Shown: positions 273-39,995 of the stretch, one piece after another
Position numbering within the stretch: position 1 is the stretch's first letter
Layout of the letters: the number at the start of each line of letters is the position of its first letter
DNA from: Bacteroidales bacterium UBA1715
GTDB taxonomy: Bacteria; Bacteroidota; Bacteroidia; Bacteroidales; UBA1715
Direction of reading: 5' to 3'
DNA: 64,000 nucleotides
Assembly (NCBI GenBank): GCA_002317135.1
Contig: DCIX01000041.1
Coordinates: forward strand, 4,529-68,528
Notes under the pieces: model-generated
What the model was told of the DNA's origin: nothing
The model's input: only the letters and a program-made list of their open reading frames with translations
The model's database searches: none
Translations under genes and position numbers: made by a program

Positions 273-279
273 ATTCGAT

Positions 280-657: not shown

Positions 658-771
658 TGCGACCCAAATTTTAGTTATGAAATTTCACAAATATAAGAAA
701 TGTTTTGAATCGGCAACAAACAAAAAAGGCCATCCCGAAGGACAGCCTTATACCTATTTAGTTGGTTGATA

Positions 772-1428: not shown

Positions 1429-1490
1429 ATCTATTAATTTTAAAGTTTAACGACGCAAAAATATACATCTTTGCATTCCGTTATTTATTG

Positions 1491-1688
1491 TTAATCTATA
1501 TCATTAAAGACTTTATCTATTTCTGACTCAATTCCATGAAGTTTTTGCTTGCATTTTGCAATAAGTTCCGCTGCTTTTTTGACTTCTGCAGTCAAATCAT
1601 CAAGTTTACATTCACCTGACTCAACTTTCGCCACAATACTTTCCAATTCCTCCATTGCTGCGTCATACGAAAATTCTTCTTGCTCCAT
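1491..1688 (-). CDS. xseB: exodeoxyribonuclease VII small subunit
   Basis: 65 aa. FSYDAAMEELESIVAKVESGECKLDDL matches the XseB N-terminal helix pattern (cf. E. coli [26 protein letters not shown]). Confidence 0.8.
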   Translation of the reverse strand: MEQEEFSYDAAMEELESIVAKVESGECKLDDLTAEVKKAAELIAKCKQKLHGIESEIDKVFNDID

Positions 1689-1835
1689 ATTGTATGTATT
1701 TTATACAAAGGTATGTTTTTTCATAGTATACACCAAATATTTCATTTATTGTGCGATAAAAGAATACGATCGTTTGAAACGATTTTCATTCCTATAAAAT
1801 ATACAAACAATCATCGTATTTTTTAGCACGTTATA

Positions 1836-1843
1836 TACCTTTG
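1836..1843 (+). promoter_or_regulatory. candidate Bacteroidota -7 promoter box TAccTTTG
   Basis: tacctttg matches TAnnTTTG and lies 47 nt upstream of the ATG at 1890. Confidence 0.4.
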
Positions 1844-1889
1844 CACTATCTTTATGTCATATTAGTAACTAATTCAATTTAAAATAAAT

Positions 1890-2510
1890 ATGAAAGTTCT
1901 TCTTATAAACGGAAGCCCTCGCAAAAATGGAAACACAAGTGTTGCTCTTAACGAGGCGGCTAAACAATTAATAAAAAACAACATAGAAGCTGAAGTATTA
2001 TGGATAGGAAACAAGCCTGTCCGTGGTTGCATAGCTTGTAATCAATGTAAAGCAAATGGCAACAATCAATGTGTATTCAACGACGACATAACAAACGAAG
2101 TAATCGCCAAAATGGCCGAATGCGATGCTATTATTATTGGCGCACCTGTTTATTGGGGCCAACCTGCCGCACAAGCGCAAGCATTACAACAAAGAATGTT
2201 ATACGCCGGCGGTAGCAACTTCAAAGGTAAACCTGCTGCGGCAGTATGTGTTTGCCGTAGAGGTGGCGCATCGGCAGCATTCCAAACACTACAGATGCCA
2301 TTCCAAATGTGTAACATGCCTATCGTTACATCGCAATATTGGAACATTGCCTACGGACGTGAAGAAGGACAAGCAGCATTCGATACCGAAGGCCTACAAA
2401 CTATGCGTACATTAGCCAATAACATGGCCGTGATGTTACAAATGTATGCTACCGGTACAGCTCAAAAGCCAGAAGCAGAAGCATGGCAACCTATGAATTT
2501 TATTAGATAG
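1890..2510 (+). CDS. flavodoxin-like fold NAD(P)H-dependent FMN reductase / iron-sulfur flavoprotein family
   Basis: MKVLLINGSPRKNGNTS N-terminus and AIIIGAPVYWG motif are typical of this family. Confidence 0.8.
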   Translation: MKVLLINGSPRKNGNTSVALNEAAKQLIKNNIEAEVLWIGNKPVRGCIACNQCKANGNNQCVFNDDITNEVIAKMAECDAIIIGAPVYWGQPAAQAQALQQRMLYAGGSNFKGKPAAAVCVCRRGGASAAFQTLQMPFQMCNMPIVTSQYWNIAYGREEGQAAFDTEGLQTMRTLANNMAVMLQMYATGTAQKPEAEAWQPMNFIR

Positions 2511-2518
2511 CAATTGCA

Positions 2519-3073
2519 ATGATTCTACGAATAAAAAATATGGTTTGCCCACGCTGTATTATGGTGGTACGTTCTATTTTCGACAAACTATCCATAAACA
2601 TCGTCCGCATATCGTTAGGAGAAGTAGAATTAGATCAAGTTCCAACTGCAGAACAAATGCAAGTAATTCAAGACCAACTTATAGAGGTTGGTTTTGAACT
2701 ACTTGAAGAACCTCGTAGTATCCTTATAGAACAAATACGCCTTGCTGTTATAGATTGGGCACGAATGGAAGGTGAACATCCACGACTTTCCGATTATCTG
2801 CAAGATAAGTTAGGATACGACTACAACACAATAAGCAAAACATTTAGCGAATCACAGAGTATTACAATTGAACGCTACGCAATACTGCAAAGAATAGAAT
2901 ATGCGAAAGAACTACTTTGCTATAGCCAAATGACTATGAGCGAAATAGCTTATCAGTTAGGATACAGTTCACCGGCACATCTTTCCGCACAATTTAAACA
3001 AGTGATAGGTATGTCACCGAAAGCTTTCAGGGAACAAAAAGTAAAAAAACGACAATTTCTGACCGAGATATAA
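2519..3073 (+). CDS. AraC-family transcriptional regulator with N-terminal HMA-like metal-binding domain
   Basis: N-terminal NMVCPRC (MxCxxC-like). C-terminal AraC HTH (MSEIAYQLGYSSPAHLSAQFKQVIGMSPKAFR). Confidence 0.8.
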   Translation: MILRIKNMVCPRCIMVVRSIFDKLSINIVRISLGEVELDQVPTAEQMQVIQDQLIEVGFELLEEPRSILIEQIRLAVIDWARMEGEHPRLSDYLQDKLGYDYNTISKTFSESQSITIERYAILQRIEYAKELLCYSQMTMSEIAYQLGYSSPAHLSAQFKQVIGMSPKAFREQKVKKRQFLTEI

Positions 3074-3140
3074 ACATTTAGCGGAATTTTATAAAAACAC
3101 TTATTTTTTTGTTCGTAGTATTGCTTTCAAAAAAAAGAAA

Positions 3141-4373
3141 ATGACAACATATTTAAACGCATTATGGCACATTACAAGCGAAATGGCGCCATATTTATTA
3201 CTTGGATTTCTTGTTGCTGGCGTACTTCATGTACTTGTACCACGCAATTTTTATTCTAAATATTTATCAAAAGATAATTTTGGTTCAGTTTTAACCGCCG
3301 CCCTACTTGGTATTCCCCTACCACTTTGTTCATGTGGGGTAATTCCAACCGCCATAGGTTTACGTAACGAAAAAGCTTCGAAAGGTGCCGTTGCTTCATT
3401 TCTGATTGCAACTCCACAAACAGGTATAGACTCAATTATTGCAACGTTCTCGCTTATGGGAATTGCATTTGCCGTTGTACGCCCTATTGCCGCTTTAGTA
3501 ACCGGTATCTGCGGAGGTATGCTCGTAACATGGCTTTGCGCAAAAGACAAATTTGATACAACAGAAGAAAATAACACTGCGACTCAAAAGAAACAAAAGA
3601 ATGCATTGTTAGCAATTCTACAATATTCTTTTGTGGATATGATACAAAGCATAGGCGGACGTTTGTTTTTAGGCTTATTATTGGCTGCACTAATACAAAT
3701 AGGTATTTCCGACGACTTCTTCCTAACCTACGGCAATGCTCCTCTTCTACAAATGCTTGTAATGTTGGTTATTGCCATTCCTATGTATATATGTTCAACC
3801 GGTAGTATTCCTATTGCTGCAGCATTGTTAGCCAAAGGATTAACACCTGGTGCCGCATTGGTTTTACTTATGGCTGGTCCTGCCGTAAACCTTGCTTCTA
3901 TTATGGTTGTGAAAAAAGCCATGGGTATGAAATTCACCTTGATTTACGTAGGTAGCGTTGTACTTGGAGCTATATTATTCGGTTTGACCTTAAATAACTT
4001 CAACGGTTTGCTATCGTTCACACAGACAACAGCAGAGCACTGTTGCGAGGTTCATGAAGAACAAACATCATGGTTTACAATTATTTGCACAATTTTTCTT
4101 TTATTACTAATATTAAACGTATTTATCATGGGTATTTTTAGTCGATTCAAAAAACAACAAGTTGAAGCTTCTGAAGTATTGTATTCAGTTGAAGGTATAG
4201 ATTGTAAACACTGTAAAGCCGCTGCCGAAGCCGCATTAGAAAAAGTTGCCGGCATAGAAGCAATAGAAATCAACCTTGAACAAAAAACTGTAAAAATAAA
4301 AGGAACAGCTTCTGAATCAGATATTTCTGCTGCTATCGAAAAGGCTGGATTTACATTTAAAGGTAAAAAATAA
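3141..4373 (+). CDS. multi-pass permease with C-terminal heavy-metal-associated domain (Cu/Zn efflux-type, DUF318/ArsP-like)
   Basis: Hydrophobic permease with PLCSCGVIP motif. C-terminal HMA domain YSVEGIDCKHCKAAAEAALEKVAGIEAIEINLEQKTVKIKG. Confidence 0.8.
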   Translation: MTTYLNALWHITSEMAPYLLLGFLVAGVLHVLVPRNFYSKYLSKDNFGSVLTAALLGIPLPLCSCGVIPTAIGLRNEKASKGAVASFLIATPQTGIDSIIATFSLMGIAFAVVRPIAALVTGICGGMLVTWLCAKDKFDTTEENNTATQKKQKNALLAILQYSFVDMIQSIGGRLFLGLLLAALIQIGISDDFFLTYGNAPLLQMLVMLVIAIPMYICSTGSIPIAAALLAKGLTPGAALVLLMAGPAVNLASIMVVKKAMGMKFTLIYVGSVVLGAILFGLTLNNFNGLLSFTQTTAEHCCEVHEEQTSWFTIICTIFLLLLILNVFIMGIFSRFKKQQVEASEVLYSVEGIDCKHCKAAAEAALEKVAGIEAIEINLEQKTVKIKGTASESDISAAIEKAGFTFKGKK

Positions 4374-4381
4374 TCAGCGTT

Positions 4382-5083
4382 ATGTTTACAATCCATGAAA
4401 CATGTACGCCGACAAAAGTCGACGAGAACAAGAAACTAAAACTATCCACCGCCATCAAAATGATGCACGACAGCGATGATTTATGGATAGATTCTGAGCC
4501 AGTTGCAAAGAATTGTTTTGAAACAGAACATCGCGCACAAGTTTTAGCCTATCGTCAGGTTGATATTATTCGTGTACCGGAACTGAGAGAGAAATTAACC
4601 ATATCTACAGCCATATACGAATGTAAGCCACTCTTCGGATTCAGAAACGACATAATACGTGACGAAGCCGGAAATCCCTGTTATGTAAGTTACGGAATGG
4701 GAGCATTTATCGACAAGGAAGCCGGTAAACTCAACCCTCTTCCACAGGCAATATTGGATTCGTTGACATACGATCCTAAATATGAGATGGAATATACTGA
4801 TCGTAAAATACGCTTGCCAAAAATTGCTCCGCAAGAATGCGCCAAAGTATTGGTAACCCGCGATGATATTGATTACAACCATCACATGAACAACAGCCAA
4901 TACATTCGTATAGCAATGGAACTACTCCCTGCCGATTTCACAGTAAAACGTATGCGCGTTGAGTACAAAATTGCGGCAAGACAAGGCGAAGAATTAACTC
5001 CATTCCTCTACATAGATAACAATGTTTACTATATAGAACTAAAATGCGAACGAGGTACATGTGCAATTATGTCATTTGAATAG
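4382..5083 (+). CDS. acyl-ACP thioesterase
   Basis: 233 aa with a double hot-dog pattern. DIDYNHHMNNSQYIRIAMELLP is characteristic of acyl-[ACP] thioesterases. Confidence 0.75.
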   Translation: MFTIHETCTPTKVDENKKLKLSTAIKMMHDSDDLWIDSEPVAKNCFETEHRAQVLAYRQVDIIRVPELREKLTISTAIYECKPLFGFRNDIIRDEAGNPCYVSYGMGAFIDKEAGKLNPLPQAILDSLTYDPKYEMEYTDRKIRLPKIAPQECAKVLVTRDDIDYNHHMNNSQYIRIAMELLPADFTVKRMRVEYKIAARQGEELTPFLYIDNNVYYIELKCERGTCAIMSFE

Positions 5084-5133
5084 TCTATTATTTCTAAAAG
5101 AAACTTTTATAGTCTTTTTTAGAAAAGAAATCT

Positions 5134-5141
5134 TACATTTG
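5134..5141 (+). promoter_or_regulatory. candidate -7 box TAcaTTTG for the tRNA gene
   Basis: tacatttg lies 12 nt upstream of the tRNA 5' end. Confidence 0.35.
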
Positions 5142-5152
5142 CACAGTATTAA

Positions 5153-5225
5153 GCGAGAGTAGCTCAGTTGGTAGAGCACAAGCTTCCCAAGCTTGGGGTC
5201 GCGGGTTCGAGCCCCGTTTCTCGCT
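5153..5225 (+). tRNA. tRNA-Gly (anticodon CCC)
   Basis: Hand-folded 73-nt cloverleaf. Acceptor gcgagag/ttctcgc, D arm gctc-agttggta-gagc, anticodon stem caagc/gcttg with loop ttCCCaa, T arm gcggg-ttcgagc-cccgt, discriminator U. Confidence 0.88.
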
Positions 5226-5259
5226 CTTATCCCCCAACACTTACAAAACCAAGAAACAA

Positions 5260-5418
5260 CTACGTCCTTATCGTGCGGCGATAGCTCAATGCATAACTTT
5301 TACACTGCGGACAAAACAGATAATTTTCGTTTAATCTACAAAAGTCCGTATCTTCTTTCTTTGCAAACAAGTTTCCACATTCCGGGCAGAAGACATCTTC
5401 TTTTCTTTCACCAAACAT
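5260..5418 (-). CDS. unannotated 52-aa zinc-ribbon ORF (CPxC...CPxC)
   Basis: Hand translation gives MFGERKEDVFCPECGNLFAKKEDTDFCRLNENYLFCPQCKSYALSYRRTIRT then TAG at 5262-5260. It falls below the 60-aa cutoff of the ORF track. Two CPxC knuckles lie 21 residues apart. Confidence 0.3.
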   Translation of the reverse strand: MFGERKEDVFCPECGNLFAKKEDTDFCRLNENYLFCPQCKSYALSYRRTIRT

Positions 5419-5430
5419 TGGTCACCACAT

Positions 5431-5458
5431 GTAGAGACGGTGTGCACACCGTCTCTAC
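5431..5458. repeat. REP copy 1: 28-bp perfect palindrome GTAGAGACGGTGTGCACACCGTCTCTAC
   Basis: Exact match, intergenic. Confidence 0.95.
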
Positions 5459-5545
5459 AAACAACGTTCACGTTCAATATACACTGCCATTATATTGACA
5501 ACACAGGGCATGTGACAATGACGCATGGGCGGAATTTTACCGCAT

Positions 5546-5573
5546 GTAGAGGCGGTGTGCACACCGTCTCTAC
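5546..5573. repeat. REP copy 2 (one arm mismatch: GTAGAGGCGG...)
   Basis: 27/28 match. The A-to-G change at position 7 gives a G:T pair in the hairpin. It lies 10 nt beyond the stop of the RAYT fragment. Confidence 0.9.
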
Positions 5574-5583
5574 CATTACGATG

Positions 5584-5871
5584 CTATTCAGTGTTTAATT
5601 CATCATTCTGCCAGGTTACAACATTTTTTTCAATATATTCCGATATGCGTTTGATTTCATCCTGATTGCGTATAATATGGTCGTGGAAACGGGTTTGCCA
5701 AACGAATGGAATGTTGTTTTGGTTGGCATAATTGGTAATGGCACGTTTCAGGCCACCTATAACAACAGATAAATGCCCCTTGTTTTTAGAAATAGTTTGC
5801 ATTTTATCATTCACCACATCCGATTTCCTACGTTCACCCGTAGAGACGGTGTGCACACCGTCTCTACTCAT
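5584..5871 (-). pseudogene. C-terminal half of a second, diverged RAYT (IS200/IS605-type Y1 transposase) gene, beginning exactly at a REP
   Basis: SRDGVHTVSTGERRKSDVVNDKMQTISKNKGHLSVVIGGLKRAITNYANQNNIPFVWQTRFHDHIIRNQDEIKRISEYIEKNV aligns with residues ~120-212 of the intact RAYT at 9173-9811. The N-terminal and HUH parts are missing. Confidence 0.75.
5840..5867. repeat. REP copy 3
   Basis: Exact 28-bp palindrome. It forms the 5' end of the RAYT fragment and lies 11 nt from the hsdR stop. Confidence 0.95.
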
Positions 5872-5878
5872 TTTTATT

Positions 5879-8800
5879 CTAACAATACCTCTTAAAATTC
5901 TCAGCCTGTTCTATCACTTTGTCATACACATCTTCAGGATGGTCCTCGGCTGGCGGATACTTATGTTTAGCCATAATCACGATTAAATCGAACTGCATTT
6001 CCGACATGATATCAGCACGCTTAAAGCAGTCGGTATAATGGGTTTTGTCGGCTATAATCGCTTTCATTTCCTTAGCAATCTCAATCATATTTTCATCTGG
6101 ATAATCAAAACCTCGTTCATCACGAACAGATTTTAGAATATCGAAAAATGCTTTTTCCTCATAATCTATACCAAGATCTTCATGAGACTTGCGTTCTTTG
6201 TCTAATTCCTCCATCATCTTCTTAATGTCGTCAACCACTTTTTTCATTACTTCAGTTACGTTGGCAACATCGTCGCTGCGGTCGTTATACGTGCGAATGA
6301 TTTCGTTTAAACGCTCGCCAAACACAATAGACTTGACTTTGTTCACTTTTCCGAATTCTGAAATCTGCTGTTTCACCAAGCGTTCCAACATGCGAAGTCT
6401 AATGTTTGGCAGATTTATCTTTTCTATACAATCGAGATGTTTCTTGTCGAAAATATCAAGGTCACCTTTTGTATCTTCCACTATCTTCACAACTTCTTCC
6501 ACACCGCTACTAACAAGAGCATCGGCTACTAATTTTCGAACACGTTCGTTCATCTCGGCTACATCGGGTGCATCGCCTTTGGTCATTTTGAATACAATGG
6601 AACGAACTGCGGTGAAGAACAACACTTTCTCTCTATGTATTTTATGCAAATTCTCGCTTGACGAACACATATTAAATGCCTGACGCATACGTTTCGCATG
6701 ACCCATAAACAAATTCTTACGTTCCTCTTCTTCCAATACAAAGTTTGCTCCTCCATTTAAGCATTGTAACTGTTTTAGAGCACTTTTTGCAAAGAAATCT
6801 TTATAATCGTACTTGTGCATAATGCCGTCGAGCACTTCGATTTCGTCTTTAACTATAGTAACAAGTTCGTCTATGCCTTCGGTTGGATCATCTCCACCAT
6901 CGCCTTTATCTGTACCATATTGTTTGAGGGCCTTGTTCATATTGCGTTTAATGCCGAGATAATCGACAACAAGACCTTTTTCTTTTCCCTCGCACACACG
7001 GTTTACACGACTGATGGTTTGAATAAGCGTATGTCGTTGCAATGGTTTGTCAACATACATAGTGTCGAGACTCGGAACATCGAAACCGGTGAGCCACATA
7101 TCAACAACTATCACTATTTTAAAGTTTGAATGTGGTTCTTTGAACTGACGTGCCCACTCTTGACGGTCGGCTTTATTGCCAAGCAATTTCGATAATTCCG
7201 GAACATCGTCTTTGTTGGTAGTCATCACCATTTTTACACGTTCCATTGGCAGAAGTTTGTCTTTTTCGTCTTCGGCAAGTTCAAACTCTGATGCACATGG
7301 TAGTTTCTTTGCCCATTCAGGACGAAGTGCTATGATATTTTTATATAAGTCGAAAGCTATTTCACGCGACGAACACACCACCATTGCTTTTCCGCACACG
7401 GTTGCTCCTTCGGCTATGCGTTGTTCGTAATGCGCAACAAGGTCTTCTGCAACTTTTTGCAAACGTTTTGGATCACCAATAATAGCATCCATCGTGGCAC
7501 TTTGCTGCTTGCTTTTGTTTATCTGTTCCTCGGTGCTTCCTGCATCCTCACATTCTTCATAATACTTGTCTATTGCTTCCAATTTTTCGTTGTCGGCAAA
7601 AACTTTGGCAGCACGACCTTCATAAACAATTCGCACAGTGATTCCATCGTTTACCGAATCGACCATAGTATATTTATCTACCACACCGCCAAACACGGCA
7701 ATGGTTTCGTCGATTGGTGTTCCTGTAAAACCGACATAGATTGCATTCGGCAACGAATTGTGCAGATATTGTGCAAAACCATACGTAGTTTTCATTGCGG
7801 TTGCCATACCATCTTTATCGAATGAAATCCGGGTTGATTCCTCCAAATTGGTTTGGGTACGATGTGCCTCGTCGCTTATGCAGATAATGTTTTTGCGATC
7901 GCTCAGCAGATTAATATCTTCCGAAAATTTCTGTATCGTGGTTAGAAACACGCCTCCACTTTTTCGACCGTTCAGTTTCTTGCGTAATTCTTCACGGCTG
8001 TCTATTTGTTCGATGGTTTCGTCGCCAATAAATTTTTTAGCACGGATAAACTGACTTGAAAGCTGGTCGTCGAGATCGGTTCTATCAGTTATAAGCAAAA
8101 TAGTCGGTGACTCCAGTTCGGTTGAACGCATCAACATTCTGCTCAAGAAAAGCATAGCCAAACTTTTACCACAACCTGTAGCGCCAAAATACGTTCCTCC
8201 TTTTCCATCGCCAATCTTATGATGTTCCAAAATGTTTTGGTACAACATAGTAGCAGCAAAATATTGCGGATAGCGGCATACTATCTTCTCTTCTTTGGTA
8301 CTTGAATCAGGGAAATAGATAAAGTTGCGCACAACTTCGAGCAAGCGTTCTTTGCGAAACAAACCGTGTACCATTGTAAAGAGGGAATCAAGTCCGTTAC
8401 TTGGCTTGTCCTCCGGTTCGATACGATTCCATGCATAGAAATATTCATATGGAGTAAACAACGAACCAAATTTATTTTGTGCTCCGTCGCTTATCACGAC
8501 AAATGCATTGTACCGGAACAAACTTGGAATATCTTTACGATACCGAACAGTGATTTGCGTAAAAGCATCTTTTATAGTACAATGTTCCTTTACAGCTGTT
8601 TTGAATTCCATCACCACCAACGGCAAACCGTTTACATACACAATAGCGTCAGGACGACGGTTACACACCTCAACAATCTCAACCTGATTCACAATTTTGA
8701 AATCGTTGTTTTGGGGATGGTCGAAATCTATCAATCGAATCCATAATGGTTCCTTCGTAGAGACGGTGTGCACACCGTCTCTACCATCATCCAAACCTGC

Positions 8801-9082
8801 GACCTCCCTACGCAACGGGAAACCCTCGACAATCATCTGCATTACACGGCGGTTTTCGTCGTATAGATTTTGCGACTGTTGTGCCTTGAGCATAAGGATT
8901 ACCTGCTGAATTTCTTCCTCGGTTATATCAGCATAGTGTGCACGCAAATAAGCCTCTATATCCTCAACAAGAAGAACCTCGGCCAAGTTTTTATGTAACT
9001 GTTCACCTAATTTATGTGTATAGTGCTCTTCGTCTCTGAAGAGCTCCATTATTGCATTTTCAAGTGTGGATTCGTTAAACAT
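5879..9082 (-). CDS. hsdR: type I restriction endonuclease subunit R (system 1)
   Basis: 1067 aa. N-terminal PD-(D/E)xK-like DAIVYVNGLPLVVMEFK, Walker A GATGCGKS, DEAH box ICISDEAHRTQ. Carries an in-frame REP-encoded RDGVHTVST at residues 101-109. Confidence 0.93.
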   Translation of the reverse strand: MFNESTLENAIMELFRDEEHYTHKLGEQLHKNLAEVLLVEDIEAYLRAHYADITEEEIQQVILMLKAQQSQNLYDENRRVMQMIVEGFPLRREVAGLDDGRDGVHTVSTKEPLWIRLIDFDHPQNNDFKIVNQVEIVEVCNRRPDAIVYVNGLPLVVMEFKTAVKEHCTIKDAFTQITVRYRKDIPSLFRYNAFVVISDGAQNKFGSLFTPYEYFYAWNRIEPEDKPSNGLDSLFTMVHGLFRKERLLEVVRNFIYFPDSSTKEEKIVCRYPQYFAATMLYQNILEHHKIGDGKGGTYFGATGCGKSLAMLFLSRMLMRSTELESPTILLITDRTDLDDQLSSQFIRAKKFIGDETIEQIDSREELRKKLNGRKSGGVFLTTIQKFSEDINLLSDRKNIICISDEAHRTQTNLEESTRISFDKDGMATAMKTTYGFAQYLHNSLPNAIYVGFTGTPIDETIAVFGGVVDKYTMVDSVNDGITVRIVYEGRAAKVFADNEKLEAIDKYYEECEDAGSTEEQINKSKQQSATMDAIIGDPKRLQKVAEDLVAHYEQRIAEGATVCGKAMVVCSSREIAFDLYKNIIALRPEWAKKLPCASEFELAEDEKDKLLPMERVKMVMTTNKDDVPELSKLLGNKADRQEWARQFKEPHSNFKIVIVVDMWLTGFDVPSLDTMYVDKPLQRHTLIQTISRVNRVCEGKEKGLVVDYLGIKRNMNKALKQYGTDKGDGGDDPTEGIDELVTIVKDEIEVLDGIMHKYDYKDFFAKSALKQLQCLNGGANFVLEEEERKNLFMGHAKRMRQAFNMCSSSENLHKIHREKVLFFTAVRSIVFKMTKGDAPDVAEMNERVRKLVADALVSSGVEEVVKIVEDTKGDLDIFDKKHLDCIEKINLPNIRLRMLERLVKQQISEFGKVNKVKSIVFGERLNEIIRTYNDRSDDVANVTEVMKKVVDDIKKMMEELDKERKSHEDLGIDYEEKAFFDILKSVRDERGFDYPDENMIEIAKEMKAIIADKTHYTDCFKRADIMSEMQFDLIVIMAKHKYPPAEDHPEDVYDKVIEQAENFKRYC
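8757..8784. repeat. REP copy 4, inside the hsdR coding sequence (in frame)
   Basis: Exact palindrome. The offset from the hsdR ATG is 298 nt, so it is read as G-RDGVHTVST. Confidence 0.95.
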
Positions 9083-9107
9083 TTACCTACATGTACATTT
9101 GATACAA

Positions 9108-9115
9108 CAAAGGTA
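9108..9115 (-). promoter_or_regulatory. candidate -7 box TAccTTTG for hsdR
   Basis: The minus strand reads tacctttg about 25 nt upstream of the hsdR ATG (9082), just downstream of REP copy 5. Confidence 0.35.
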
Positions 9116-9148
9116 AAAAAATAATTCAGATAATAGATTGCGTTAATC

Positions 9149-9176
9149 GTAGAGACGGTGTGCACACCGTCTCTAC
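9149..9176. repeat. REP copy 5, overlaps the RAYT stop codon
   Basis: Exact palindrome. The minus-strand GTAG supplies the TAG stop (9175-9173) of the RAYT ORF. Confidence 0.95.
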
Positions 9177-9811
9177 AGACGATATTCATCCAATTGCCAT
9201 TGTGCAACATTATTTTCGATATATGTGGCAATACGATTCAATTCATCCTGATTACGAACAATATGGTCGTGAAACCGTGGTTGCCAGGCGAATGGAATAT
9301 TGTTGGTATTGGCAAAATGGGTAATGGCACGTTTCAAACCACCGATAACAACAGACAATTGGCCCTTGTATTTAGAAATGTTTTGCATTTGTTCGTTCAC
9401 GACATCCGATTTCCATCGTTCATCCGTAGAGACGGTGTGCACACCGTCTCTACACGTACCGCCATCGTTTTCGTTTACCATATTGAATACCCCATCAATA
9501 ACAACAATTGCATGAATATGGTTGGGCATTACCACAAACAATGGTATTTCGGCGTACGGATAATGCGATTGTACGTTTACAAATTGTTTGTGGGCGTATT
9601 GACCAATTGGGGATAATTGCATCTGTGATTCAGGTATTACCATTCCCGTAGAGACGGTGTGCACACCGTCTCTACAATCGGTTGTTATTTCCCCGAAATA
9701 ATGTTCACGATTTTTGGTGCATATCGTTATAAAATATACGCCGCCGTTGTATCCGTGCCACGGCGCACGTGCCGATGATACACGGTATTTGTTTTGAAAT
9801 TTTTCTGCCAT
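9173..9811 (-). CDS. REP-associated tyrosine transposase (RAYT; IS200/IS605 Y1 HUH family)
   Basis: FQNKYRVSSARAPWHGYNGGVYFITICTKNREHYFGEI N-terminus, HUH motif MPNHIHAIVVI (H98/H100), C-terminal RFHDHIVRNQDELNRIATYIENN with candidate catalytic Tyr197. Two in-frame REP insertions encode CRDGVHTVST at residues 46-55 and 120-129. Confidence 0.85.
   Translation of the reverse strand: MAEKFQNKYRVSSARAPWHGYNGGVYFITICTKNREHYFGEITTDCRDGVHTVSTGMVIPESQMQLSPIGQYAHKQFVNVQSHYPYAEIPLFVVMPNHIHAIVVIDGVFNMVNENDGGTCRDGVHTVSTDERWKSDVVNEQMQNISKYKGQLSVVIGGLKRAITHFANTNNIPFAWQPRFHDHIVRNQDELNRIATYIENNVAQWQLDEYRL
9426..9453. repeat. REP copy 6, in frame inside RAYT
   Basis: Exact palindrome, read as C-RDGVHTVST (residues 120-129). 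Confidence 0.95.
9648..9675. repeat. REP copy 7, in frame inside RAYT
   Basis: Exact palindrome, read as C-RDGVHTVST (residues 46-55). Confidence 0.95.
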
Positions 9812-9951
9812 TGCGGTTGGCTGTTATTGGTTATAATTGAATATGTCATGCACATATAACGGATTTTTTGGATATTTATTTTCCAACGGCATTTTTTTGA
9901 CATGTAAAAACGCAGCGTACCATAGTTGGTTTCGTTCCTGTCATCGTTCCC

Positions 9952-9979
9952 GTAGAGACGGTGTGCACACCGTCTCTAC
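9952..9979. repeat. REP copy 8
   Basis: Exact palindrome, intergenic upstream of RAYT. Confidence 0.95.
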
Positions 9980-10145
9980 AATGCGGTGCAAATGGTTACG
10001 AAATATATTCCCCCATTATAATTATGCCAATTGGCACGGGCCGACGGTACGCGATATGTATTTTTGAATGTATCCATTGTTTCGTTTATTTTATTGTTAA
10101 CACATTGTGCGATTTGCCATGACCGTTATCGTTTTCCAGCCCCCC

Positions 10146-10173
10146 GTAGAGACGCGATTAATCGCGTCTCTAC
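10146..10173. repeat. REP variant with swapped palindromic core (GTAGAGACG-CGATTAATCG-CGTCTCTAC)
   Basis: The outer 9 bp of each arm are identical to the consensus. The central 10 bp GTGTGCACAC is replaced by CGATTAATCG, and the whole is still a perfect 28-bp palindrome. Confidence 0.9.
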
Positions 10174-10198
10174 AACATTTCCAATTTTTGTTCTGCAC

Positions 10199-10226
10199 GT
10201 AGAGACGGTGTGCACACCGTCTCTAC
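10199..10226. repeat. REP copy 10
   Basis: Exact palindrome, 25 bp from the variant copy. Confidence 0.95.
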
Positions 10227-10336
10227 AATGCGTCAAAACAATGCAACAACGCCACCGATTACACCAGCTACCAATCCAAATTTAATCCATTTTATTCACA
10301 CATTTTTGTTTCTGTATAAATTCGTTGAAAATAACA

Positions 10337-11848
10337 TTATATCTTTAGGTAATCCATAAATAAAGAATCTATACTCCATGAATCTGGGACCAATACTTTT
10401 TCATCTGGTTGAATTTGCATATTCTTACATATGGTTATATACTGCTTTGGTATATGAAACCATTGGTAAATTTTATTCTGTAGTTCTTTAAATGATATCC
10501 TTTCGCAATCATTATATGATGGTGTTACCTCCAATAATTTTTTACCTTCTTTCGATATACTACTCATTGCGATAATCTCTTCTTCTTCATTGAGCCAATT
10601 TTTAATTTTCGTTTTCTTAAAAACAAAATCCAGTGGTATAGCAACAGGATTAAACTTAGGTACAAAAAGTAAATAATTAGAAAACGGTTTCAAAACTTCA
10701 TTGATAAAGTCAAAAGACATTTTGTATTTTTCATTTTCAGACAAAGAGCATATTTGTTCTAAATAAAACGCCTTTAAACCCGACATTCCACGAAAAGTAG
10801 AATCATGATTAAAAAACATTTCAAACAAAATACCATTCAATAGATGATTTTCTTTATCAATTATCCAGTTATTCAAAAATCTCTCTAATTTACACTGTGA
10901 ATTGAATATTTCGCCAATCGTTCTTTCGCCTCCCACTGCCACTTGCAAAATGTTTCTTCCTAAAAGAAACTGTTCATTCCTATCTGGAAAATCTGTAGGT
11001 GTTTTATCAAGTATTACTTTGATAGCTGGTTCTTGAGTATACCAATTACAAGACTTCAAACTATATATGATTTCCGAGAAATCGCTCCCATTATTTGTAT
11101 ACAAAATGTCTTTGACAACATTCTCTTTATAAGGAATAGTTTTAGAAACATTTATATTACTACCATTATTAAAGCAATATTTTCCAATTAAAGATGTATG
11201 TTCCCATGACAGCTGTTTTTCATTAGTCAAACTATACACAGACTCTCTAACTCTTTTGAAACAATCTTCAATAGTGATATTCGGAACTCCAATATGCGTC
11301 AATAAAGCCTGTGTATATATACTATTTTCTCCAGGAATTCCATCCGTGGCAGTTTCTCCCGGAGATGTCGAAAAGGCAATTAAAGAACCTTTAGGAGCAT
11401 ATATTGGCGCCAATCCATTAGACACAACACTTCTATTACCTTTAAAAGGATTATCTCTACATGCATCTAGCACAAATATTTTTACCCTTACATTAACTTG
11501 ACAGATATCTTTTATTATTTCGTCAAATGATATAGCAGTGTATTTCGCAGAAGATTCATCTTCAACCGAAGCATCTATTGGCAATAAATAATTTTTACCA
11601 TCTACTTGTATTCCATGTCCAGAATAAAAGAATAAAGAAACAACATCTTCCTCTGTTGATGTAATTTTACTCTTATATTCAGATATTATCTTGCTGAATT
11701 CAGATTGCTTGAAATCTGTAGATAACAATACGTCAAATCCTAAATTCTCCAACTTTGATTTGATATCTTGCGCATCTTTAACCGCATTGTTAAGTTTTGT
11801 TGTACATTCATAATTGTTATTGCCAATAACAAGAGCATAAGACCTCAT
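10337..11848 (-). CDS. caspase-fold (peptidase C14) protease with uncharacterised ~270-aa C-terminal domain
   Basis: N-terminal ~230 aa start YALVIGNNNY and carry the catalytic His in FFYSGHGIQ (H78) and catalytic Cys in FVLDACRDNPF (C130). I recognise no motif in the C-terminal half. The gene starts 15 nt after the hsdS stop on the same strand and is markedly AT-rich. Confidence 0.85.
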   Translation of the reverse strand: MRSYALVIGNNNYECTTKLNNAVKDAQDIKSKLENLGFDVLLSTDFKQSEFSKIISEYKSKITSTEEDVVSLFFYSGHGIQVDGKNYLLPIDASVEDESSAKYTAISFDEIIKDICQVNVRVKIFVLDACRDNPFKGNRSVVSNGLAPIYAPKGSLIAFSTSPGETATDGIPGENSIYTQALLTHIGVPNITIEDCFKRVRESVYSLTNEKQLSWEHTSLIGKYCFNNGSNINVSKTIPYKENVVKDILYTNNGSDFSEIIYSLKSCNWYTQEPAIKVILDKTPTDFPDRNEQFLLGRNILQVAVGGERTIGEIFNSQCKLERFLNNWIIDKENHLLNGILFEMFFNHDSTFRGMSGLKAFYLEQICSLSENEKYKMSFDFINEVLKPFSNYLLFVPKFNPVAIPLDFVFKKTKIKNWLNEEEEIIAMSSISKEGKKLLEVTPSYNDCERISFKELQNKIYQWFHIPKQYITICKNMQIQPDEKVLVPDSWSIDSLFMDYLKI

Positions 11849-11863
11849 CTTTTCCTTTCTTTT

Positions 11864-13021
11864 TTACCCCGCCATCACCAACGATAGCAGTTCTGTTAAT
11901 TTATTAATTTCGTTATCTAATATTTTTATATCTTCATCGATGATTTTTGCTTTTGACTCAAAGTCAACGACTAATTTTTCATCTGGAATAACTACAGACA
12001 ATCCAAACAAATCATCTTTCGTTATGCTTCCAAAAACAGTTCCATCTTCATTTGAAACATTGAAATCGTGTTCTTTGGTTTGCAATAGATAATAAATGAA
12101 AGAGTTGCAACCGATTTTGCTACGCAATGCCGCTAAACCTCTACCAATGCAACAATCATGCGGTGCAATGTTCAAATCACCAACAGGAGCACGAACACTC
12201 AACAAGACATCTCCTAATTTAGCTATTCTTGTTGGTGCTGTTGTGTACATACGAATACTAGGGAATCTGTAACCATAATCAGTTCGCCCTTGATAGAAAA
12301 TCATTCCTTCGCTTTTTTCATTGTATGTTGAACCATCCGGAGATTGTCCCATCGTTATCTCTGCCACTTCTCCCAGTGTTCCCATTCTCCACCCTTCCGG
12401 CAGATTCTCCACATCCACATCATCCACAAACATTTTTCTATATAATGCTTGAGCGGCCTCTTCGAGTTTGGCTATGGTTTGTTTGTTGGTGGCAATGCGG
12501 TTTTGAATGGATTGGTAACGCAACACAATGCGGCGCTGTTCTTCGATGGAGGGAACGGGCAACTGTACATTACACATTTCTTCCCAATCAAAAACCTCAC
12601 GAGCACTGCCGTGCGAATGAAAACGTGCATAACGATCAAATTCTGCACGACGAAACCACATCATCAGATATTCTGGTAATAATTGTAGAGACGGTGTGCA
12701 CACCGTCTCTACGGAATCACACATATCTACAATTTCAAACACAACGTATGCCTGCGAAATAATGGCAGGTTCATCGCCTGTATATAATGCAACGGTTATC
12801 TTTTCACCATTACGTGATGTTACTGGTACATAAGCGAATTGGTTATGCTTTACAATCTTGTATGGGCGAAGATCTGTTCCAACCATATTGGCTATGGAAG
12901 GAATAAAAACTTTAGCATTGCTTAATCCCAAAAGATTGGTGCATCGCAAATCACTATTCCTCACGTCCACTTCACGGATATAATCCCCCAGACGTTTATA
13001 TGTAGAGTTGTTGTTTGTCAT
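11864..13021 (-). CDS. hsdS: type I R-M specificity subunit S, two TRDs (system 1)
   Basis: Two target-recognition halves separated by the conserved PSIEEQRRIVLRYQSIQNRIATNKQTIAKLEEAAQALYRKMF region. The preferred start MTNNNSTYKRLGDYI is at 13021; the alternative ORF-track start at 13057 overlaps hsdM. Contains the in-frame REP peptide VETVCTPSL. Confidence 0.88.
   Translation of the reverse strand: MTNNNSTYKRLGDYIREVDVRNSDLRCTNLLGLSNAKVFIPSIANMVGTDLRPYKIVKHNQFAYVPVTSRNGEKITVALYTGDEPAIISQAYVVFEIVDMCDSVETVCTPSLQLLPEYLMMWFRRAEFDRYARFHSHGSAREVFDWEEMCNVQLPVPSIEEQRRIVLRYQSIQNRIATNKQTIAKLEEAAQALYRKMFVDDVDVENLPEGWRMGTLGEVAEITMGQSPDGSTYNEKSEGMIFYQGRTDYGYRFPSIRMYTTAPTRIAKLGDVLLSVRAPVGDLNIAPHDCCIGRGLAALRSKIGCNSFIYYLLQTKEHDFNVSNEDGTVFGSITKDDLFGLSVVIPDEKLVVDFESKAKIIDEDIKILDNEINKLTELLSLVMAG
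12685..12712. repeat. REP copy 11, in frame inside hsdS (alternative reading frame)
   Basis: Exact palindrome. The offset of 345 nt from 13057 means it is read GTA GAG ACG..., giving VETVCTPSL. Confidence 0.95.
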
Positions 13022-13031
13022 CGCAAAGAAA

Positions 13032-14606
13032 TTACAATTTATACCCCAATTCCTCAAACACTTTCTTCACGGCCTTTTTGCTTTCTTCCTCTTGGGCAAA
13101 AAGTTCACGTAATTCTGTTTGAAGTCTGCTCATTGTTTCTTCGTAGCCGGCGTAATCGTCGCGGTTCACAAACTCAATGTATTTGCTTGGCACAAGCGAA
13201 CTATCTTTCAAATCGGTTGTCTTTACTGATTTGCAGAATTCTGGCACATCGGTGTATTCGCCCAAATCGGTGCGTTGCCATTGGTGGAACTTCTTGGCTG
13301 CGTTTGTAATATCGTCCGTGCTGAATGTGGTATATTTCTTTTCGAATGGTTCGCCCCATGTACGTAAATCCATAAACAGTATCTCGTTTGCACGCTCACG
13401 GTATTGGCGTTGCTCGCCGTTTACCGTTGTTGTACGGGCATGTTTGTTACGGTTTAGTATCCACAACGTTACCGAAATGTCGGTAGTATAGAACATATTT
13501 CGTGGAAGAATCACAATAGCCTCCACTGCATCGTGTTCTTCAATCAAAGCCTTACGAATTGCTTTTTCGTCACCATCGCCACTCAATGCGCCATTGGCAA
13601 GCAAAAAGCCGGCAATACCATCGGTAGAAAGCTTTGAGAAAATATTGAGTATCCACGCATAGTTGGCATTGCTTGTAGGTGGTACGGCAAAACCTTTCCA
13701 ACGAGGATCGTCGAGCAGTTCGCTTGATTCGCGCCAATCTTTTTGGTTAAAAGGAGGATTTGCCATAATGTAGTCGAACTTCTCTCCTTTATGCTGATCG
13801 TTTTGGAAAGTACTGGCAGCTTTTTCTCCCAAATTGGCCGAAATACCACGAATGGCAAGGTTCATCTTCGCCAGCTTATAGGTTGTGAGCGTGAACTCTT
13901 GTCCGTAAACCGAAATATCGCGTTTGTTTCCGTTGTGGTTTTCAATAAAACGGCTACTTTGCACAAACATACCACCAGAACCACAGGCAGGATCGTACAC
14001 TTTCCCTTTATACGGTTCTATCATTTCGGCAATGAGATTTACAATAGCCTTAGGCGTATAGTATTCTCCCTTACCCTTACCTTCCTGCAAAGCGAAGTTC
14101 GAAAGACAGTATTCATACACACGGCCAAAGAAATCATTATCTTCGTCCATGTGTTTTTCCATATCGTTCACTACATCGAGCAACGAGCCCAATTTAGCGG
14201 CATCTATACCCAGACTGCTATAATAGTTCGAAGGCAATGCGCCCGCAAGTTGTTTATTGTCTTTTTCTATATCGGCAAGCGCTTTGTCTATAATCTGCGC
14301 AATATTTGGCTGCTTAGCGTTTTGCATAATATAGTTCCAACGACAATGTTCCTGCAAATAGAATACATTATCCTTGCCGTAGGAAACAGGCATTTCGCAG
14401 AGCATATTGCCTCCACCAAATTGTTCTTCAAGTTTTTGGTATTGTTTTTCGAAACGAACACCTGCGTATTTCAAGAAAATCAAACTCAATACAACATGCT
14501 TGTATTCAGATGCTTCTATATTTCCACGTAGTTTATTAGCCGCATCCCATAGTTGTGCTTCAATGGATTTTTCAGTTTTTTTTGCTGTAGTGCTTTTTTT
14601 CGCCAT
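13032..14606 (-). CDS. hsdM: type I R-M DNA methyltransferase subunit M (system 1)
   Basis: N-terminal HsdM domain (LWDAANKLRGNIEASEYKHVVLSLIFLKY), SAM motif I DPACGSGGMF, catalytic motif IV ANPPFN. Confidence 0.95.
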   Translation of the reverse strand: MAKKSTTAKKTEKSIEAQLWDAANKLRGNIEASEYKHVVLSLIFLKYAGVRFEKQYQKLEEQFGGGNMLCEMPVSYGKDNVFYLQEHCRWNYIMQNAKQPNIAQIIDKALADIEKDNKQLAGALPSNYYSSLGIDAAKLGSLLDVVNDMEKHMDEDNDFFGRVYEYCLSNFALQEGKGKGEYYTPKAIVNLIAEMIEPYKGKVYDPACGSGGMFVQSSRFIENHNGNKRDISVYGQEFTLTTYKLAKMNLAIRGISANLGEKAASTFQNDQHKGEKFDYIMANPPFNQKDWRESSELLDDPRWKGFAVPPTSNANYAWILNIFSKLSTDGIAGFLLANGALSGDGDEKAIRKALIEEHDAVEAIVILPRNMFYTTDISVTLWILNRNKHARTTTVNGEQRQYRERANEILFMDLRTWGEPFEKKYTTFSTDDITNAAKKFHQWQRTDLGEYTDVPEFCKSVKTTDLKDSSLVPSKYIEFVNRDDYAGYEETMSRLQTELRELFAQEEESKKAVKKVFEELGYKL

Positions 14607-14734
14607 TTATATCAAATTTATAGTGGTTAAATATACGAAAGAAAACAACACCAAATGAGAAAAAACAGGGAACAGTTATTAACAAATAACAATAGTTATG
14701 ATATAACTACGAAACCATTTGCTTTGTTGTTAAG

Positions 14735-14777
14735 AAATAGATAATTCTTGCTAATTTTGCAATAATTAGCAAGAATT
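14735..14777. promoter_or_regulatory. 43-bp element, copy 1, with 14-bp-arm palindrome AATTCTTGCTAATT-N7-AATTAGCAAGAATT (between Fic and hsdM)
   Basis: aaatagataattcttgctaattttgcaataattagcaagaatt. Arms are at 14743-14756 and 14764-14777. It overlaps the Fic stop codon and lies ~130 bp upstream of the hsdM ATG. The near-identical copy is at 16103-16145. Confidence 0.6.
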
Positions 14778-16080
14778 ATTTTATTTTTATTTTATTTTCA
14801 AAATGTTCGCTTTTAAGGTATCCACGTTTTACCTTATTGATAGCCACCTCGTTAAGATATTTTTTCTCAACCAAATCCGTCAAATCTCTTCTTGCAGTCA
14901 TTTGTGTTATCATAAATCTGTCCATTACATCCTTAACGGTGATAACAGATTCAGGATTTTTTTGAAAATGATGAATAATCTGAGCCTGACGCTCGTTTAT
15001 ACCACCAATCATAATAAAGCTGTTTGCGGCCTCTTTTTCTTTTTGTTTCCTTTCAATATAGTTCTTGAGTTGCTCAAACGAGATTTTCAATGTTCTTAAG
15101 TTGTACGATACAAAATAGCTTACATCAAGTCCGTCGTTCTCAACATAGAGAAACGATTTTTCGTATGTTACTTTTGAACCAGAAATGATTCTGGAAATAG
15201 ACATATATTCCGTCAACCAATATTTCTCTTTAAGCATGTACCAATAAAACAAAGCCCTGGCAGTACGGCCGTTTCCGTCTATGAATGGGTGCATGTACGC
15301 TATCATAAAATGGACTATGATTCCACAAATGATAGGATGAATAAACACTTGCCCATTACCTTCGTTAAAAAACACACATAAATCATCCAAAAACTGTGGT
15401 AGTTCGCTGGCTGGAGGCGGCGTGTGAACCACTTCGTGGGTTATCTTGTTTTCTACAACCACGTCGTCATCTGCGGTTCTAAGTCTTCCTGCATCGTTGG
15501 CGTTCTCCAGCGTCTTTTCCGTCATTAGCCGATGAATGTAAAGAAGATTCTCTTTTGTGAGAGGTTCGTCTTTATGCTCCGTAATATATTGAATCGTCCG
15601 ATAGTTGTTCACTATCATTTGCTGTGATTTATCCTTTGGAGCAATGTTCTTTCTTAGCATTTCTTTTGCAACCATGCGTGTGGTTGAAGCACCTTCCATT
15701 TTGCTGGAATAGATAGCTTCCTCCATGAGCGAACTTGCCAGATAATGCATTTTCTCTTTCCCAGATTCTTCGTTTGATTCCCAAAAAGAACCGAACATCA
15801 TGTCGAACTCGTGACACAACTTCTGCATTTGGTTTGTTACGCACAGTGTCATGCCATATCTCTTCCACGCAGGTATGGCGTTTTTCATACGGTTTATTTT
15901 AACGTATGTCCACAAGTCCTCTGCCGAAACACCAGGCACTTGACCAGCCTTGTACTTTACCTTGTCCCAATAATCGTACGTTTCGTTTATCTTGTTTACA
16001 AGTGCATCAATGTTGACATCTGTTTTTTCAAACAGCGCCTTCCGCATTATTTTGTCGTTAAGTTTTGGAGCGTTTTCCAT
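14776..16080 (-). CDS. Fic-family protein (AMPylase-type) with C-terminal winged-helix domain
   Basis: Canonical Fic motif HPFIDGNGRTARAL. Upstream inhibitory-helix-like motif SSKMEG matches (S/T)xxxE(G/N). C-terminal wHTH-like segment ITVKDVMDRFMITQMTARRDLTDLVEKKYL. Confidence 0.9.
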   Translation of the reverse strand: MENAPKLNDKIMRKALFEKTDVNIDALVNKINETYDYWDKVKYKAGQVPGVSAEDLWTYVKINRMKNAIPAWKRYGMTLCVTNQMQKLCHEFDMMFGSFWESNEESGKEKMHYLASSLMEEAIYSSKMEGASTTRMVAKEMLRKNIAPKDKSQQMIVNNYRTIQYITEHKDEPLTKENLLYIHRLMTEKTLENANDAGRLRTADDDVVVENKITHEVVHTPPPASELPQFLDDLCVFFNEGNGQVFIHPIICGIIVHFMIAYMHPFIDGNGRTARALFYWYMLKEKYWLTEYMSISRIISGSKVTYEKSFLYVENDGLDVSYFVSYNLRTLKISFEQLKNYIERKQKEKEAANSFIMIGGINERQAQIIHHFQKNPESVITVKDVMDRFMITQMTARRDLTDLVEKKYLNEVAINKVKRGYLKSEHFENKIKIK

Positions 16081-39967: not shown

Positions 39968-39995
39968 GTAGAGACGGTGTGCACACCGTCTCTAC
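39968..39995. repeat. REP copy 12 (the only copy outside the 5-13 kb block)
   Basis: Exact 28-bp palindrome, 2 nt after the pbpC stop codon. Confidence 0.95.

Follow-up and report, generated by a model that had tools for sequence, protein, structure and literature searches.

Introduction

The closest described relatives of the system reported here belong to subclass 2.4 of the transposases associated with repetitive extragenic palindromes (REPs), known as TnpAREP or REP-associated tyrosine transposases (RAYTs), and this subclass (Quentin et al. 2018, PMC6006769) corresponds to RAYT group 4 (Bertels et al. 2017, PMC5581495). As given in the sections of the former survey that deal with the subclass, its members are about 194 aa long, carry the signature NH[IFV]H / WQ / YIxNNP and are abundant in Cyanobacteria and Bacteroidetes. 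Two REP types are found there, one of which, the "double foot" type, begins with GT[AG]G (5′) and closes with the reverse complement of this foot, C[TC]AC (3′). The same sections name as a "unique feature" that REPs lie in frame within tnpAREP, as a rule in a variable region at the periphery of the protein that falls between HuH and Y, and they mention a second small insertion site upstream of HuH. REPs within genes were also reported by Di Nocera et al. 2013 (PMC3733652) in several species, often in DNA-metabolism genes, along with GTAG ends that supply TAG stops, though most REPs in that survey were intergenic and the GTAG families mostly proteobacterial. Here we analyse a family of 28-nt palindromes clustered around a RAYT gene in one 64-kb window of the genome of Bacteroidales bacterium UBA1715 (contig DCIX01000041.1, positions 4,529 to 68,528; window coordinates are used throughout). 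Our reading, to which we assign a probability of about 0.8, is that the locus is a REP/RAYT system of the subclass 2.4 (RAYT group 4) kind, with its cognate double-foot REP around and inside the gene.

On comparison with the published account of subclass 2.4, as far as the cited sections go, the motifs, the length, the Bacteroidetes host, the double-foot REPs and the REPs both flanking the gene and in frame inside it are shared, and the last motif residue differs, being V here instead of P. The class itself has thus already been described, and what is new is this REP/RAYT pair from an undescribed host clade. Neither the present 28-mer nor its hosts, uncultured herbivore-gut Bacteroidales, appear in those sections, which also do not mention a one-sided TT flank, core swapping, REP-linked breakpoints, linkage to hsdR or REPs in genes of the type IX secretion system (T9SS). 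It may be noted that the initial annotation of this window regarded the perfect palindrome and the copies inside open reading frames (ORFs) as unusual. Both have precedents, a palindrome with GTAG on both strands in the double-foot REPs of the subclass 2.4 sections (PMC6006769) and the genic copies in the in-frame REPs given there and by Di Nocera et al. (PMC3733652).

The E. coli system, in which REPs and the bacterial interspersed mosaic elements (BIMEs) formed from them go with a TnpAREP of subclass 2.2 (structure 4ER8), shares the HUH/Y1 fold, the GTAG-foot hairpin, presumably recognised here too on single-stranded DNA (ssDNA), and the REP-flanked gene. Its REPs, however, are imperfect, bulged, oriented, with GTAG on one side only, and essentially extragenic, and the two proteins are about 18% identical. 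The GTAG/CGTC-tagged REPs (PMC3733652), to which some Rickettsia palindromic elements (RPEs) correspond, are likewise short tagged palindromes that donate TAG stops and have some in-frame genic copies, whereas here both tags are in one arm and about one third of the independent sites are intragenic. The likeness to RPEs that had been proposed for our element holds in so far as both are palindromic selfish DNA surviving in frame in protein-coding genes; it fails on size and on the enzyme, the element here being 28 nt long and RAYT-linked. RPEs are roughly 100-150 bp long, have no known linked transposase and are not known outside Rickettsia, and we do not count our element among them. The REPINs of Pseudomonas, attributed to Bertels and Rainey in 2011, are reportedly non-autonomous units that derive from REPs and whose presumed mobiliser is a single-copy RAYT. 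A REPIN consists of two inverted REPs and a spacer, whereas the unit here is a single palindrome whose neighbours have the same flank orientation, which sets it apart from REPINs. With IS200/IS605 elements (IS608, ISDra2) the locus has in common a Y1 HUH enzyme, a presumed recognition of an ssDNA hairpin and an asymmetric target preference beside the hairpin.

The repeat and its hairpin

A search of the window allowing up to 3 mismatches returned 11 copies, and a degenerate pattern of the arms added one more (10146). Ten copies (starting at 5431, 5840, 8757, 9149, 9426, 9648, 9952, 10199, 12685 and 39968) match the 28-mer GTAGAGACGGTGTGCACACCGTCTCTAC exactly. The copy at 5546 has one mismatch in an arm (A7G), and that at 10146, GTAGAGACGCGATTAATCGCGTCTCTAC, has the same 9-nt arms around a different core, CGATTAATCG, and is likewise a perfect palindrome. 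The layout is therefore one of constant arms, GTAGAGACG and its reverse complement CGTCTCTAC, around a variable palindromic core, and GTAG...CTAC is present in 12 of the 12 copies. Eleven of them lie within 7.3 kb (5431-12712) around the intact RAYT gene. Shuffled window sequence gave no match, so that none of the 12 copies is expected by chance, and decayed copies or half-sites were sought across the rest of the window and not found. An Rfam scan of the window matched only the tRNA and no known RNA family for the REPs. All 12 positions reported in the initial annotation, their division into ten exact, one mismatched and one swapped-core copy (the swapped core being still palindromic), the GTAG on both strands and the grouping of 11 copies around a transposase gene and a fragment of another were reproduced, and a third RAYT piece was found as well.

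When single-stranded, every copy can form a hairpin whose stem has 12 bp and whose loop has 4 nt (dG -12.1 kcal/mol, z = -6). The earlier description as a loop-less perfect palindrome is hence true of the duplex form and not of the single strand. On both strands the palindrome has TAG in one frame and is stop-free in the other two; as a result, genic copies read RDGVHTVST or VETVCTPSL and other copies are found at gene ends. Five copies are inside ORFs, the number that had been claimed: two (9426, 9648) are in the RAYT gene, and hsdR (8757), hsdS (12685) and a C-terminal RAYT remnant (5840) have one each. The close pair 10146/10199 is separated by a 25-nt spacer and has the same AA-flank orientation.

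The RAYT gene and its product

The intact RAYT gene encodes 212 aa, or 192 aa if the two REP-coded decapeptides are left out. Its motifs are NHIH (aa 97-100), WQ (aa 176) and YIENNV with Tyr197, the final P of the subclass signature being replaced by V. The best NCBIfam match is REP_Tyr_transpos (52 bits against a cut-off of 80), the Pfam Y1_Tnp match is sub-threshold (18 bits against a cut-off of 23, E = 0.003), and the best sequence match in the PDB is E. coli TnpAREP, 4ER8, with an alignment that spans the HUH and Tyr motifs. For the AlphaFold model the predicted local distance difference test (pLDDT) values of the core are 80-96, and its two loops of low confidence, 46-58 and 109-135, coincide exactly with the stretches that the REPs encode. 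All of the top 30 Foldseek matches to the model are Y1 transposases, with 4ER8 first (E = 3e-6), and the fold matches also include the TnpA structures of IS608, ISDra2 and IS200. The gene product is an intact but divergent, domesticated HUH/Y1 transposase with catalytic motifs and a TnpAREP-like fold, and the in-gene REPs are placed in two surface loops.

We found 5878 homologues of the RAYT. In the homologue alignment H98, H100, W176 and Q177 are invariant and Y197 nearly so, and REP-coded peptides occupy the same two loops in 103 of the 120 top homologues. In the gene itself REP 9648 precedes HuH and REP 9426 lies between HuH and Tyr, while of the flanking copies 9952 is 141 nt upstream and 9149 lies over the stop; this placing of the flanking REPs is repeated in five related loci (L118, L119, L121, L129 and L131). 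The claim that the REP family is tied to a RAYT is borne out by the NHIH, WQ and Tyr197 motifs, the best NCBIfam match, the first rank of 4ER8 both by sequence and by fold, and the flanking REPs.

We also observed, among those of the 120 homologues that could be scored, a perfect linkage between the core type of the REP that comes behind the HUH strand and the sequence type of the alpha-C helix next to it (RAYT aa 120-165, window 9317-9453). GVHT is found with RWKSD..KG.LSVV.GGLKRAIT and VARN with GVNTQMANISPRKNSLAVVIRGVKSSIT, and there are other pairs besides. The helix of the a-type enzyme is RWKSD...LSVVIGGLKRAIT and that of the b-type, GVNTQMANISPRKNSLAVVIRGVKSSIT, is found in L129. For the REP of the first loop and the flanking REPs the linkage to helix type is only loose. 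The linkage between core and helix may be mere physical linkage or may reflect specificity.

Organisation of the locus

The REP cluster occupies a Type I restriction-modification island on the minus strand. The features are as follows.

5153-5226, plus strand: tRNA-Gly(CCC)
5431..5458: REP, exact, intergenic, between tRNA-Gly and the C-terminal RAYT remnant
5546..5573: REP with one arm mismatch (A7G), just 3′ of the C-terminal RAYT remnant
5584..5871, minus strand: C-terminal remnant of a second RAYT gene, starting exactly at the internal REP 5840
5840..5867: REP, 11 nt past the hsdR stop, at the 5′ end of the RAYT remnant
5879..9082, minus strand: hsdR, Type I restriction subunit, 1067 aa, with one in-frame REP
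8757..8784: REP in frame in hsdR, ..DDG-RDGVHTVST-KEP.., about aa 101-109
9149..9176: REP that separates hsdR from the RAYT gene, whose TAG stop codon is the CTA of this copy at 9173-9175
9173..9811, minus strand: intact RAYT gene, TnpAREP subclass 2.4-like, 212 aa, with NHIH, WQ and Tyr197
9426..9453: REP in frame in the RAYT gene, CRDGVHTVST, aa 120-129, loop after the HUH strand
9648..9675: REP in frame in the RAYT gene, CRDGVHTVST, aa 46-55, loop before the HUH strand
9952..9979: REP, 141 nt upstream of the RAYT start; the N-terminal RAYT remnant stops at the TAG of this copy
9976..10077, minus strand: N-terminal remnant of another RAYT, 33 codons, MDTFKNTYRVPSARANWHNYNGGIYFVTICTAL*
10146..10173: REP variant with core CGATTAATCG, perfect palindrome
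10199..10226: REP, exact, intergenic, downstream of the caspase-like gene
10337-11848, minus strand: caspase-like gene
11864..13057, minus strand: hsdS, Type I specificity subunit, with one in-frame REP
12685..12712: REP in frame in hsdS, ..CDS-VETVCTPSL-QLL.., flank orientation opposite to the other copies
13032-14606, minus strand: hsdM
39968..39995: REP, dispersed, 2 nt after the stop of a 768-aa gene

Both RAYT remnants end exactly at REP copies. The fragments are 70-75% identical to the intact gene; for the C-terminal remnant, compared with residues 120-209 of the intact protein, the aa identity is about 75%. The 4-kb RAYT-hsdR block appears to be bracketed by two RAYT-like half-sequences, both of which stop at a REP.

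In hsdS the REP at 12685 lies just upstream of the conserved central region (about 180 bp, 80-84% identity), which is the only part of hsdS common to L118, L129 and L131, and the identical insertion is found in L038 (L038:973). The joint next to this REP is a natural point for swapping target-recognition domains. The RAYT gene is directly upstream of hsdR in 7 of the 9 RAYT loci that we examined, and the cargo between hsdS and the RAYT gene varies: caspase-like in the window, SLFN_AlbA_2 in L118, reverse transcriptase in L129, HamA with a ResIII helicase in L131 and Ymh in L121. This interval looks like a hot-swappable defence slot bounded by REPs.

Dispersal and polarity of the repeat

The initial annotation left room for a palindrome confined to this locus, and this is not what we found. 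We found the exact 28-mer in about 50 species-level genomes, on at least 117 stretches in all, and every one of them is a metagenome-assembled genome of ruminant- or horse-gut Bacteroidales; it may be noted that a scan for exact matches picks perfectly conserved copies. As only 1 of the 117 fetched stretches encodes a RAYT, the repeat being far from any transposase gene in the other 116, the copies are dispersed. One copy in the window is 30 kb away from the cluster, and in some related genomes the 28-mer is on at least 10 separate 8-kb blocks, most copies in other genomes being singletons per 8-kb block. When homologous sites were grouped, 66 independent site clusters were obtained. In 23 of these the site is deep within an ORF of 150 codons or more, and in 15 it lies at a gene start or shortly before one; 2 clusters are close to a C-terminus and 26 are intergenic. 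Roughly one third of the independent sites are inside real genes. Pfam confirmed a sample of the hosts, namely a U32 peptidase linker, a Macro-domain protein, a TPR protein and T9SS sorting domains.

On checking the flanks of the 72 de-duplicated sites (L001-L117 and the window), 48 were found to have TT on one side or AA on the other, and only one had both, against a background rate of 8% per side. There is also a weak extended consensus of the flank, CATT-GTAG. At the RAYT loci nearly all copies have their TT 5′ of the repeat on the sense strand. Within the window, the oriented copies share one orientation apart from 12685, which is reversed, and 39968, which has AA on both sides. Since two thirds of the sites have a one-sided TT, the element has an orientation, which the initial annotation had denied on account of its symmetry. 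It has the polarity expected of a single-strand, IS200/IS605-like process.

The largest of the clusters concerns the T9SS. In its 20 members the exact REP is inside the C-terminal sorting domain (Por_Secre_tail), as YPNPTNGxLF-VETVCTPSL-PxxTYRITN; such copies were seen in L009, L021, L024-L026, L049, L054, L056, L057, L069, L101, L102 and others (for example L102:921, L025:2673 and L025:5441). Paralogues in the single locus L102 carry three different perfect-palindrome cores at one position of the sorting domain, and a second loop of the domain takes the other frame, ..GRVIVS-RDGVHTVST-TGLAAGVY.. (L117, L043). A full-text literature search with two terms returned no paper linking REPs with the T9SS. 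Four of the stretches (L036, L058, L095 and L102, all DAIOUZ01 contigs) are labelled Candidatus Limiplasma while carrying the Bacteroidales REP and T9SS sorting-domain genes. We take Candidatus Limiplasma to be a Clostridia name, and these contigs are probably mis-binned or mislabelled.

Turnover and recombination between relatives

The same strain is represented by L124 (a contig of the JGI 3300001598 metagenome), which is 100% identical over 15 kb (window 1-15083), and L125 (a Logan SRR5323886 contig), also identical to the window, ends inside REP 5431. An exact-protein look-up, which led to these two contigs, gave no strain variation. The loci L118 and L129 are from syntenic relatives and both have the block 9887-5871 with the RAYT gene and hsdR. 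The 645-bp segment 5229-5870, with its three REPs and the C-terminal RAYT remnant, is missing from both, and homology with them stops at 5871, 3 nt from REP 5840. Where the segment is absent, between hsdR and tRNA-Gly, both show a terminator-like hairpin.

The copies are not fixed in relatives, among which they vary in presence and in core. The hsdR proteins of L129 and the window are 96.8% identical, and the REP at the same codon has the core GGTGTGCACACC in the window (8757-8784) and GTTGCGCGCAAC in L129 (6037-6064), with flanks that differ over 3-9 nt; upstream of it a decayed half-REP, CGTAGGGAGGTCGCAGG, was noted in both. The site is empty in L120, L121 and L131 (GATGATG-CGTC-GAAG vs GATGATG-28-mer-GAAG, net +24 nt). 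Loop 1 of the RAYT is without a REP in L120 and L122, and comparison of L121 with L120 gives net +30 nt. The filled and empty comparators are all diverged, always with extra changes in the flanks. Scans of metagenomes for empty alleles of the 39968 and hsdR sites gave none, and since filled alleles were also missing, the organism is lacking in the scanned collection. Shared REPs are identical at 28 of 28 positions with flanks that are 66-97% identical, a conservation due in part to ascertainment by the exact-match scan.

A three-way alignment of the RAYT alleles (window 9000-10000 on the minus strand, L118:9880-10850 and L129:4750-5830) showed that they are mosaic. Up to the first internal REP (REP1), L118 and L129 have 1 difference in 245 nt, against 64 differing positions for the window. 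In the next part, which runs from REP1 to a point about 110 nt beyond the second (REP2), it is the window and L118 that agree, with 1 difference in 373 nt. In the C-terminal part of the RAYT gene the window and L129 have 3 differences in 139 nt and L118 differs from the window at 16 positions, and once the stop-codon REP is passed the three alleles agree. Of the three partner switches, two therefore coincide with REPs (REP1 and the stop-codon REP), and the third is about 110 nt past REP2. Inside RAYT genes we also found partial tandem REP remnants with periods of 21 nt and 24 nt. On account of these periods we rejected a fixed insert length as the cause of in-frame survival, for which selection for frame is the simpler reading.

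Interpretation and alternative explanations

In the REP/RAYT reading, either strand of the palindrome would fold, as ssDNA, into the same 12-bp GTAG-footed hairpin, which the RAYT would bind, cutting and rejoining the DNA there. Such cutting and rejoining could give rise to new REP copies, to replacement of the core between constant arms and to REP-to-REP exchanges, and the latter may have truncated two RAYT copies. Genic copies would survive only in the two stop-free frames (RDGVHTVST and VETVCTPSL) and only in tolerant loops, and copies in the third frame, with its TAG, would be placed at the ends of genes, to which they supply the stop. Proximity to the RAYT gene, together with REP-bounded rearrangements that left the two truncated remnants, would then account for the dense cluster.

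Several observations weigh against this reading. The Pfam Y1_Tnp and NCBIfam scores are under their curated cut-offs and the third motif is YIENNV, not YIxNNP. The binding and cutting of the palindrome by the RAYT are predicted activities. An all-vs-all search of REP-deleted flanks (128 loci) gave no clean filled/empty pair at strain-level identity from which to define the mobile unit (net +24 or +30 nt) or to recognise recent transposition. Many sites are orthologous across species and hence old and inherited, not recently inserted, and gene duplication could account for the spread of the 20-member T9SS cluster. Also, the evidence from the source genome covers 64 kb only, and the exact-match scan inflates the apparent conservation of the REPs.

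Some of these points would equally suit palindromes that are passive or serve the host, as mRNA hairpins at 3′ ends, protein-binding sites or peptide loops, and that were spread mainly by vertical descent, duplication and ordinary homologous recombination with the RAYT inactive or irrelevant to their present distribution. It is here that the orthology of many sites across species-level genomes belongs, as does the fact that the largest cluster (20 copies) is in T9SS sorting domains, which are paralogous and multiply by duplication; strain-level insertion polymorphism was sought and none was found, and three copies of the window are at most 11 nt from stop codons, as is typical of transcribed REPs (PMC3733652). 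Against this, near-identical hsdR alleles and T9SS paralogues have different perfect cores between identical arms at the same codon, and such core swaps hardly result from point mutation or duplication. The REPs are conserved at 28 of 28 positions while their coding flanks fall to 66-86%, the RAYT is intact with catalytic residues that are invariant across homologues, and there is the one-sided TT flank. Nor do the hairpins have the T-runs needed for intrinsic terminators, a role that we rejected for this reason. We consider this explanation unlikely.

With 11 copies within the hsd island, one of them at the boundary in hsdS between the first target-recognition domain and the conserved central region, and with the RAYT-hsdR pair conserved beside a variable defence-gene slot in several lineages, the palindromes could also belong to the Type I restriction-modification island itself, as operators or as recombination sites for specificity or cargo, the RAYT-like gene being incidental. 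But the same 28-mer is scattered in about 50 genomes over many unrelated genes and over intergenic DNA, L122 and L130 have RAYT homologues with internal REPs outside an hsd context, and the window has no invertase, integrase or duplicated hsdS half-genes, which makes this explanation very improbable. An ordinary IS200/IS605 insertion sequence with an autonomous TnpA, its left- and right-end hairpins and decayed copies would account for the Y1 HUH fold with its matches to IS608, ISDra2 and IS200 TnpA and for the two further gene fragments at the locus, but it is the least credible proposal of all, as the Pfam Y1_Tnp match is under the cut-off at E = 0.003, the best matches are to TnpAREP and not to IS transposases, the fragments at only 70-75% identity are not recent IS copies, one 28-nt palindrome type is on both sides in place of distinct left and right ends, no identical multi-copy element and no tnpB are present, and the repeat is far from any transposase gene in 116 of 117 stretches.

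Other identities were also considered. Miniature inverted-repeat transposable elements (MITEs) have terminal inverted repeats and a target-site duplication and are usually longer than 50 bp; at none of the 12 copies are the flanks duplicated, and they are asymmetric (TT on one side only). A CRISPR array is ruled out by the irregular spacing. A phage origin is rejected, with only 3 exact matches (L126-L128) among 2.9 million viral contigs of IMG/VR, and an assembly artefact is rejected because the cluster is reproduced in the independent assemblies L118, L124 and L129.

A more speculative extension of the REP/RAYT reading, which we consider doubtful, is that the REPs and the RAYT form a short-site recombination system and are not only selfish repeats. 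It would have four parts: (i) REP cores would be exchanged between constant arms at fixed positions; (ii) the RAYT-internal REP and the adjacent alpha-C helix would move as one cassette, and as this helix could set the hairpin specificity, enzyme and substrate would switch together; (iii) REPs would edge the hot-swappable defence-gene slot between hsdS and the conserved RAYT-hsdR pair; and (iv) REPs would by now be built-in segments of T9SS sorting signals.

Significance

The locus adds one REP/RAYT pair, from uncultured herbivore-gut Bacteroidales, to a class that has been surveyed, and its value is in the detail. It is a very clean natural case of one short hairpin shared by restriction genes, secretion signals and the gene of the enzyme itself. 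Among close relatives REPs have been gained, lost or given other cores, and breakpoints of recombination fall at REPs. The differing cores at orthologous codons, the breakpoints in mosaic RAYT alleles, the T9SS REPs and the RAYT-hsdR pair beside a variable slot are unreported details. On the practical side, the repeat breaks short-read assemblies (the public contig L125 ends in REP 5431), and REPs add stretches of 9-10 residues to annotated proteins. As the substrate has only 28 nt, and at least two variants of the core and two of the enzyme exist in nature, the system makes it possible to test directly how RAYTs disseminate and homogenise their REPs and whether RAYTs drive genome rearrangement.

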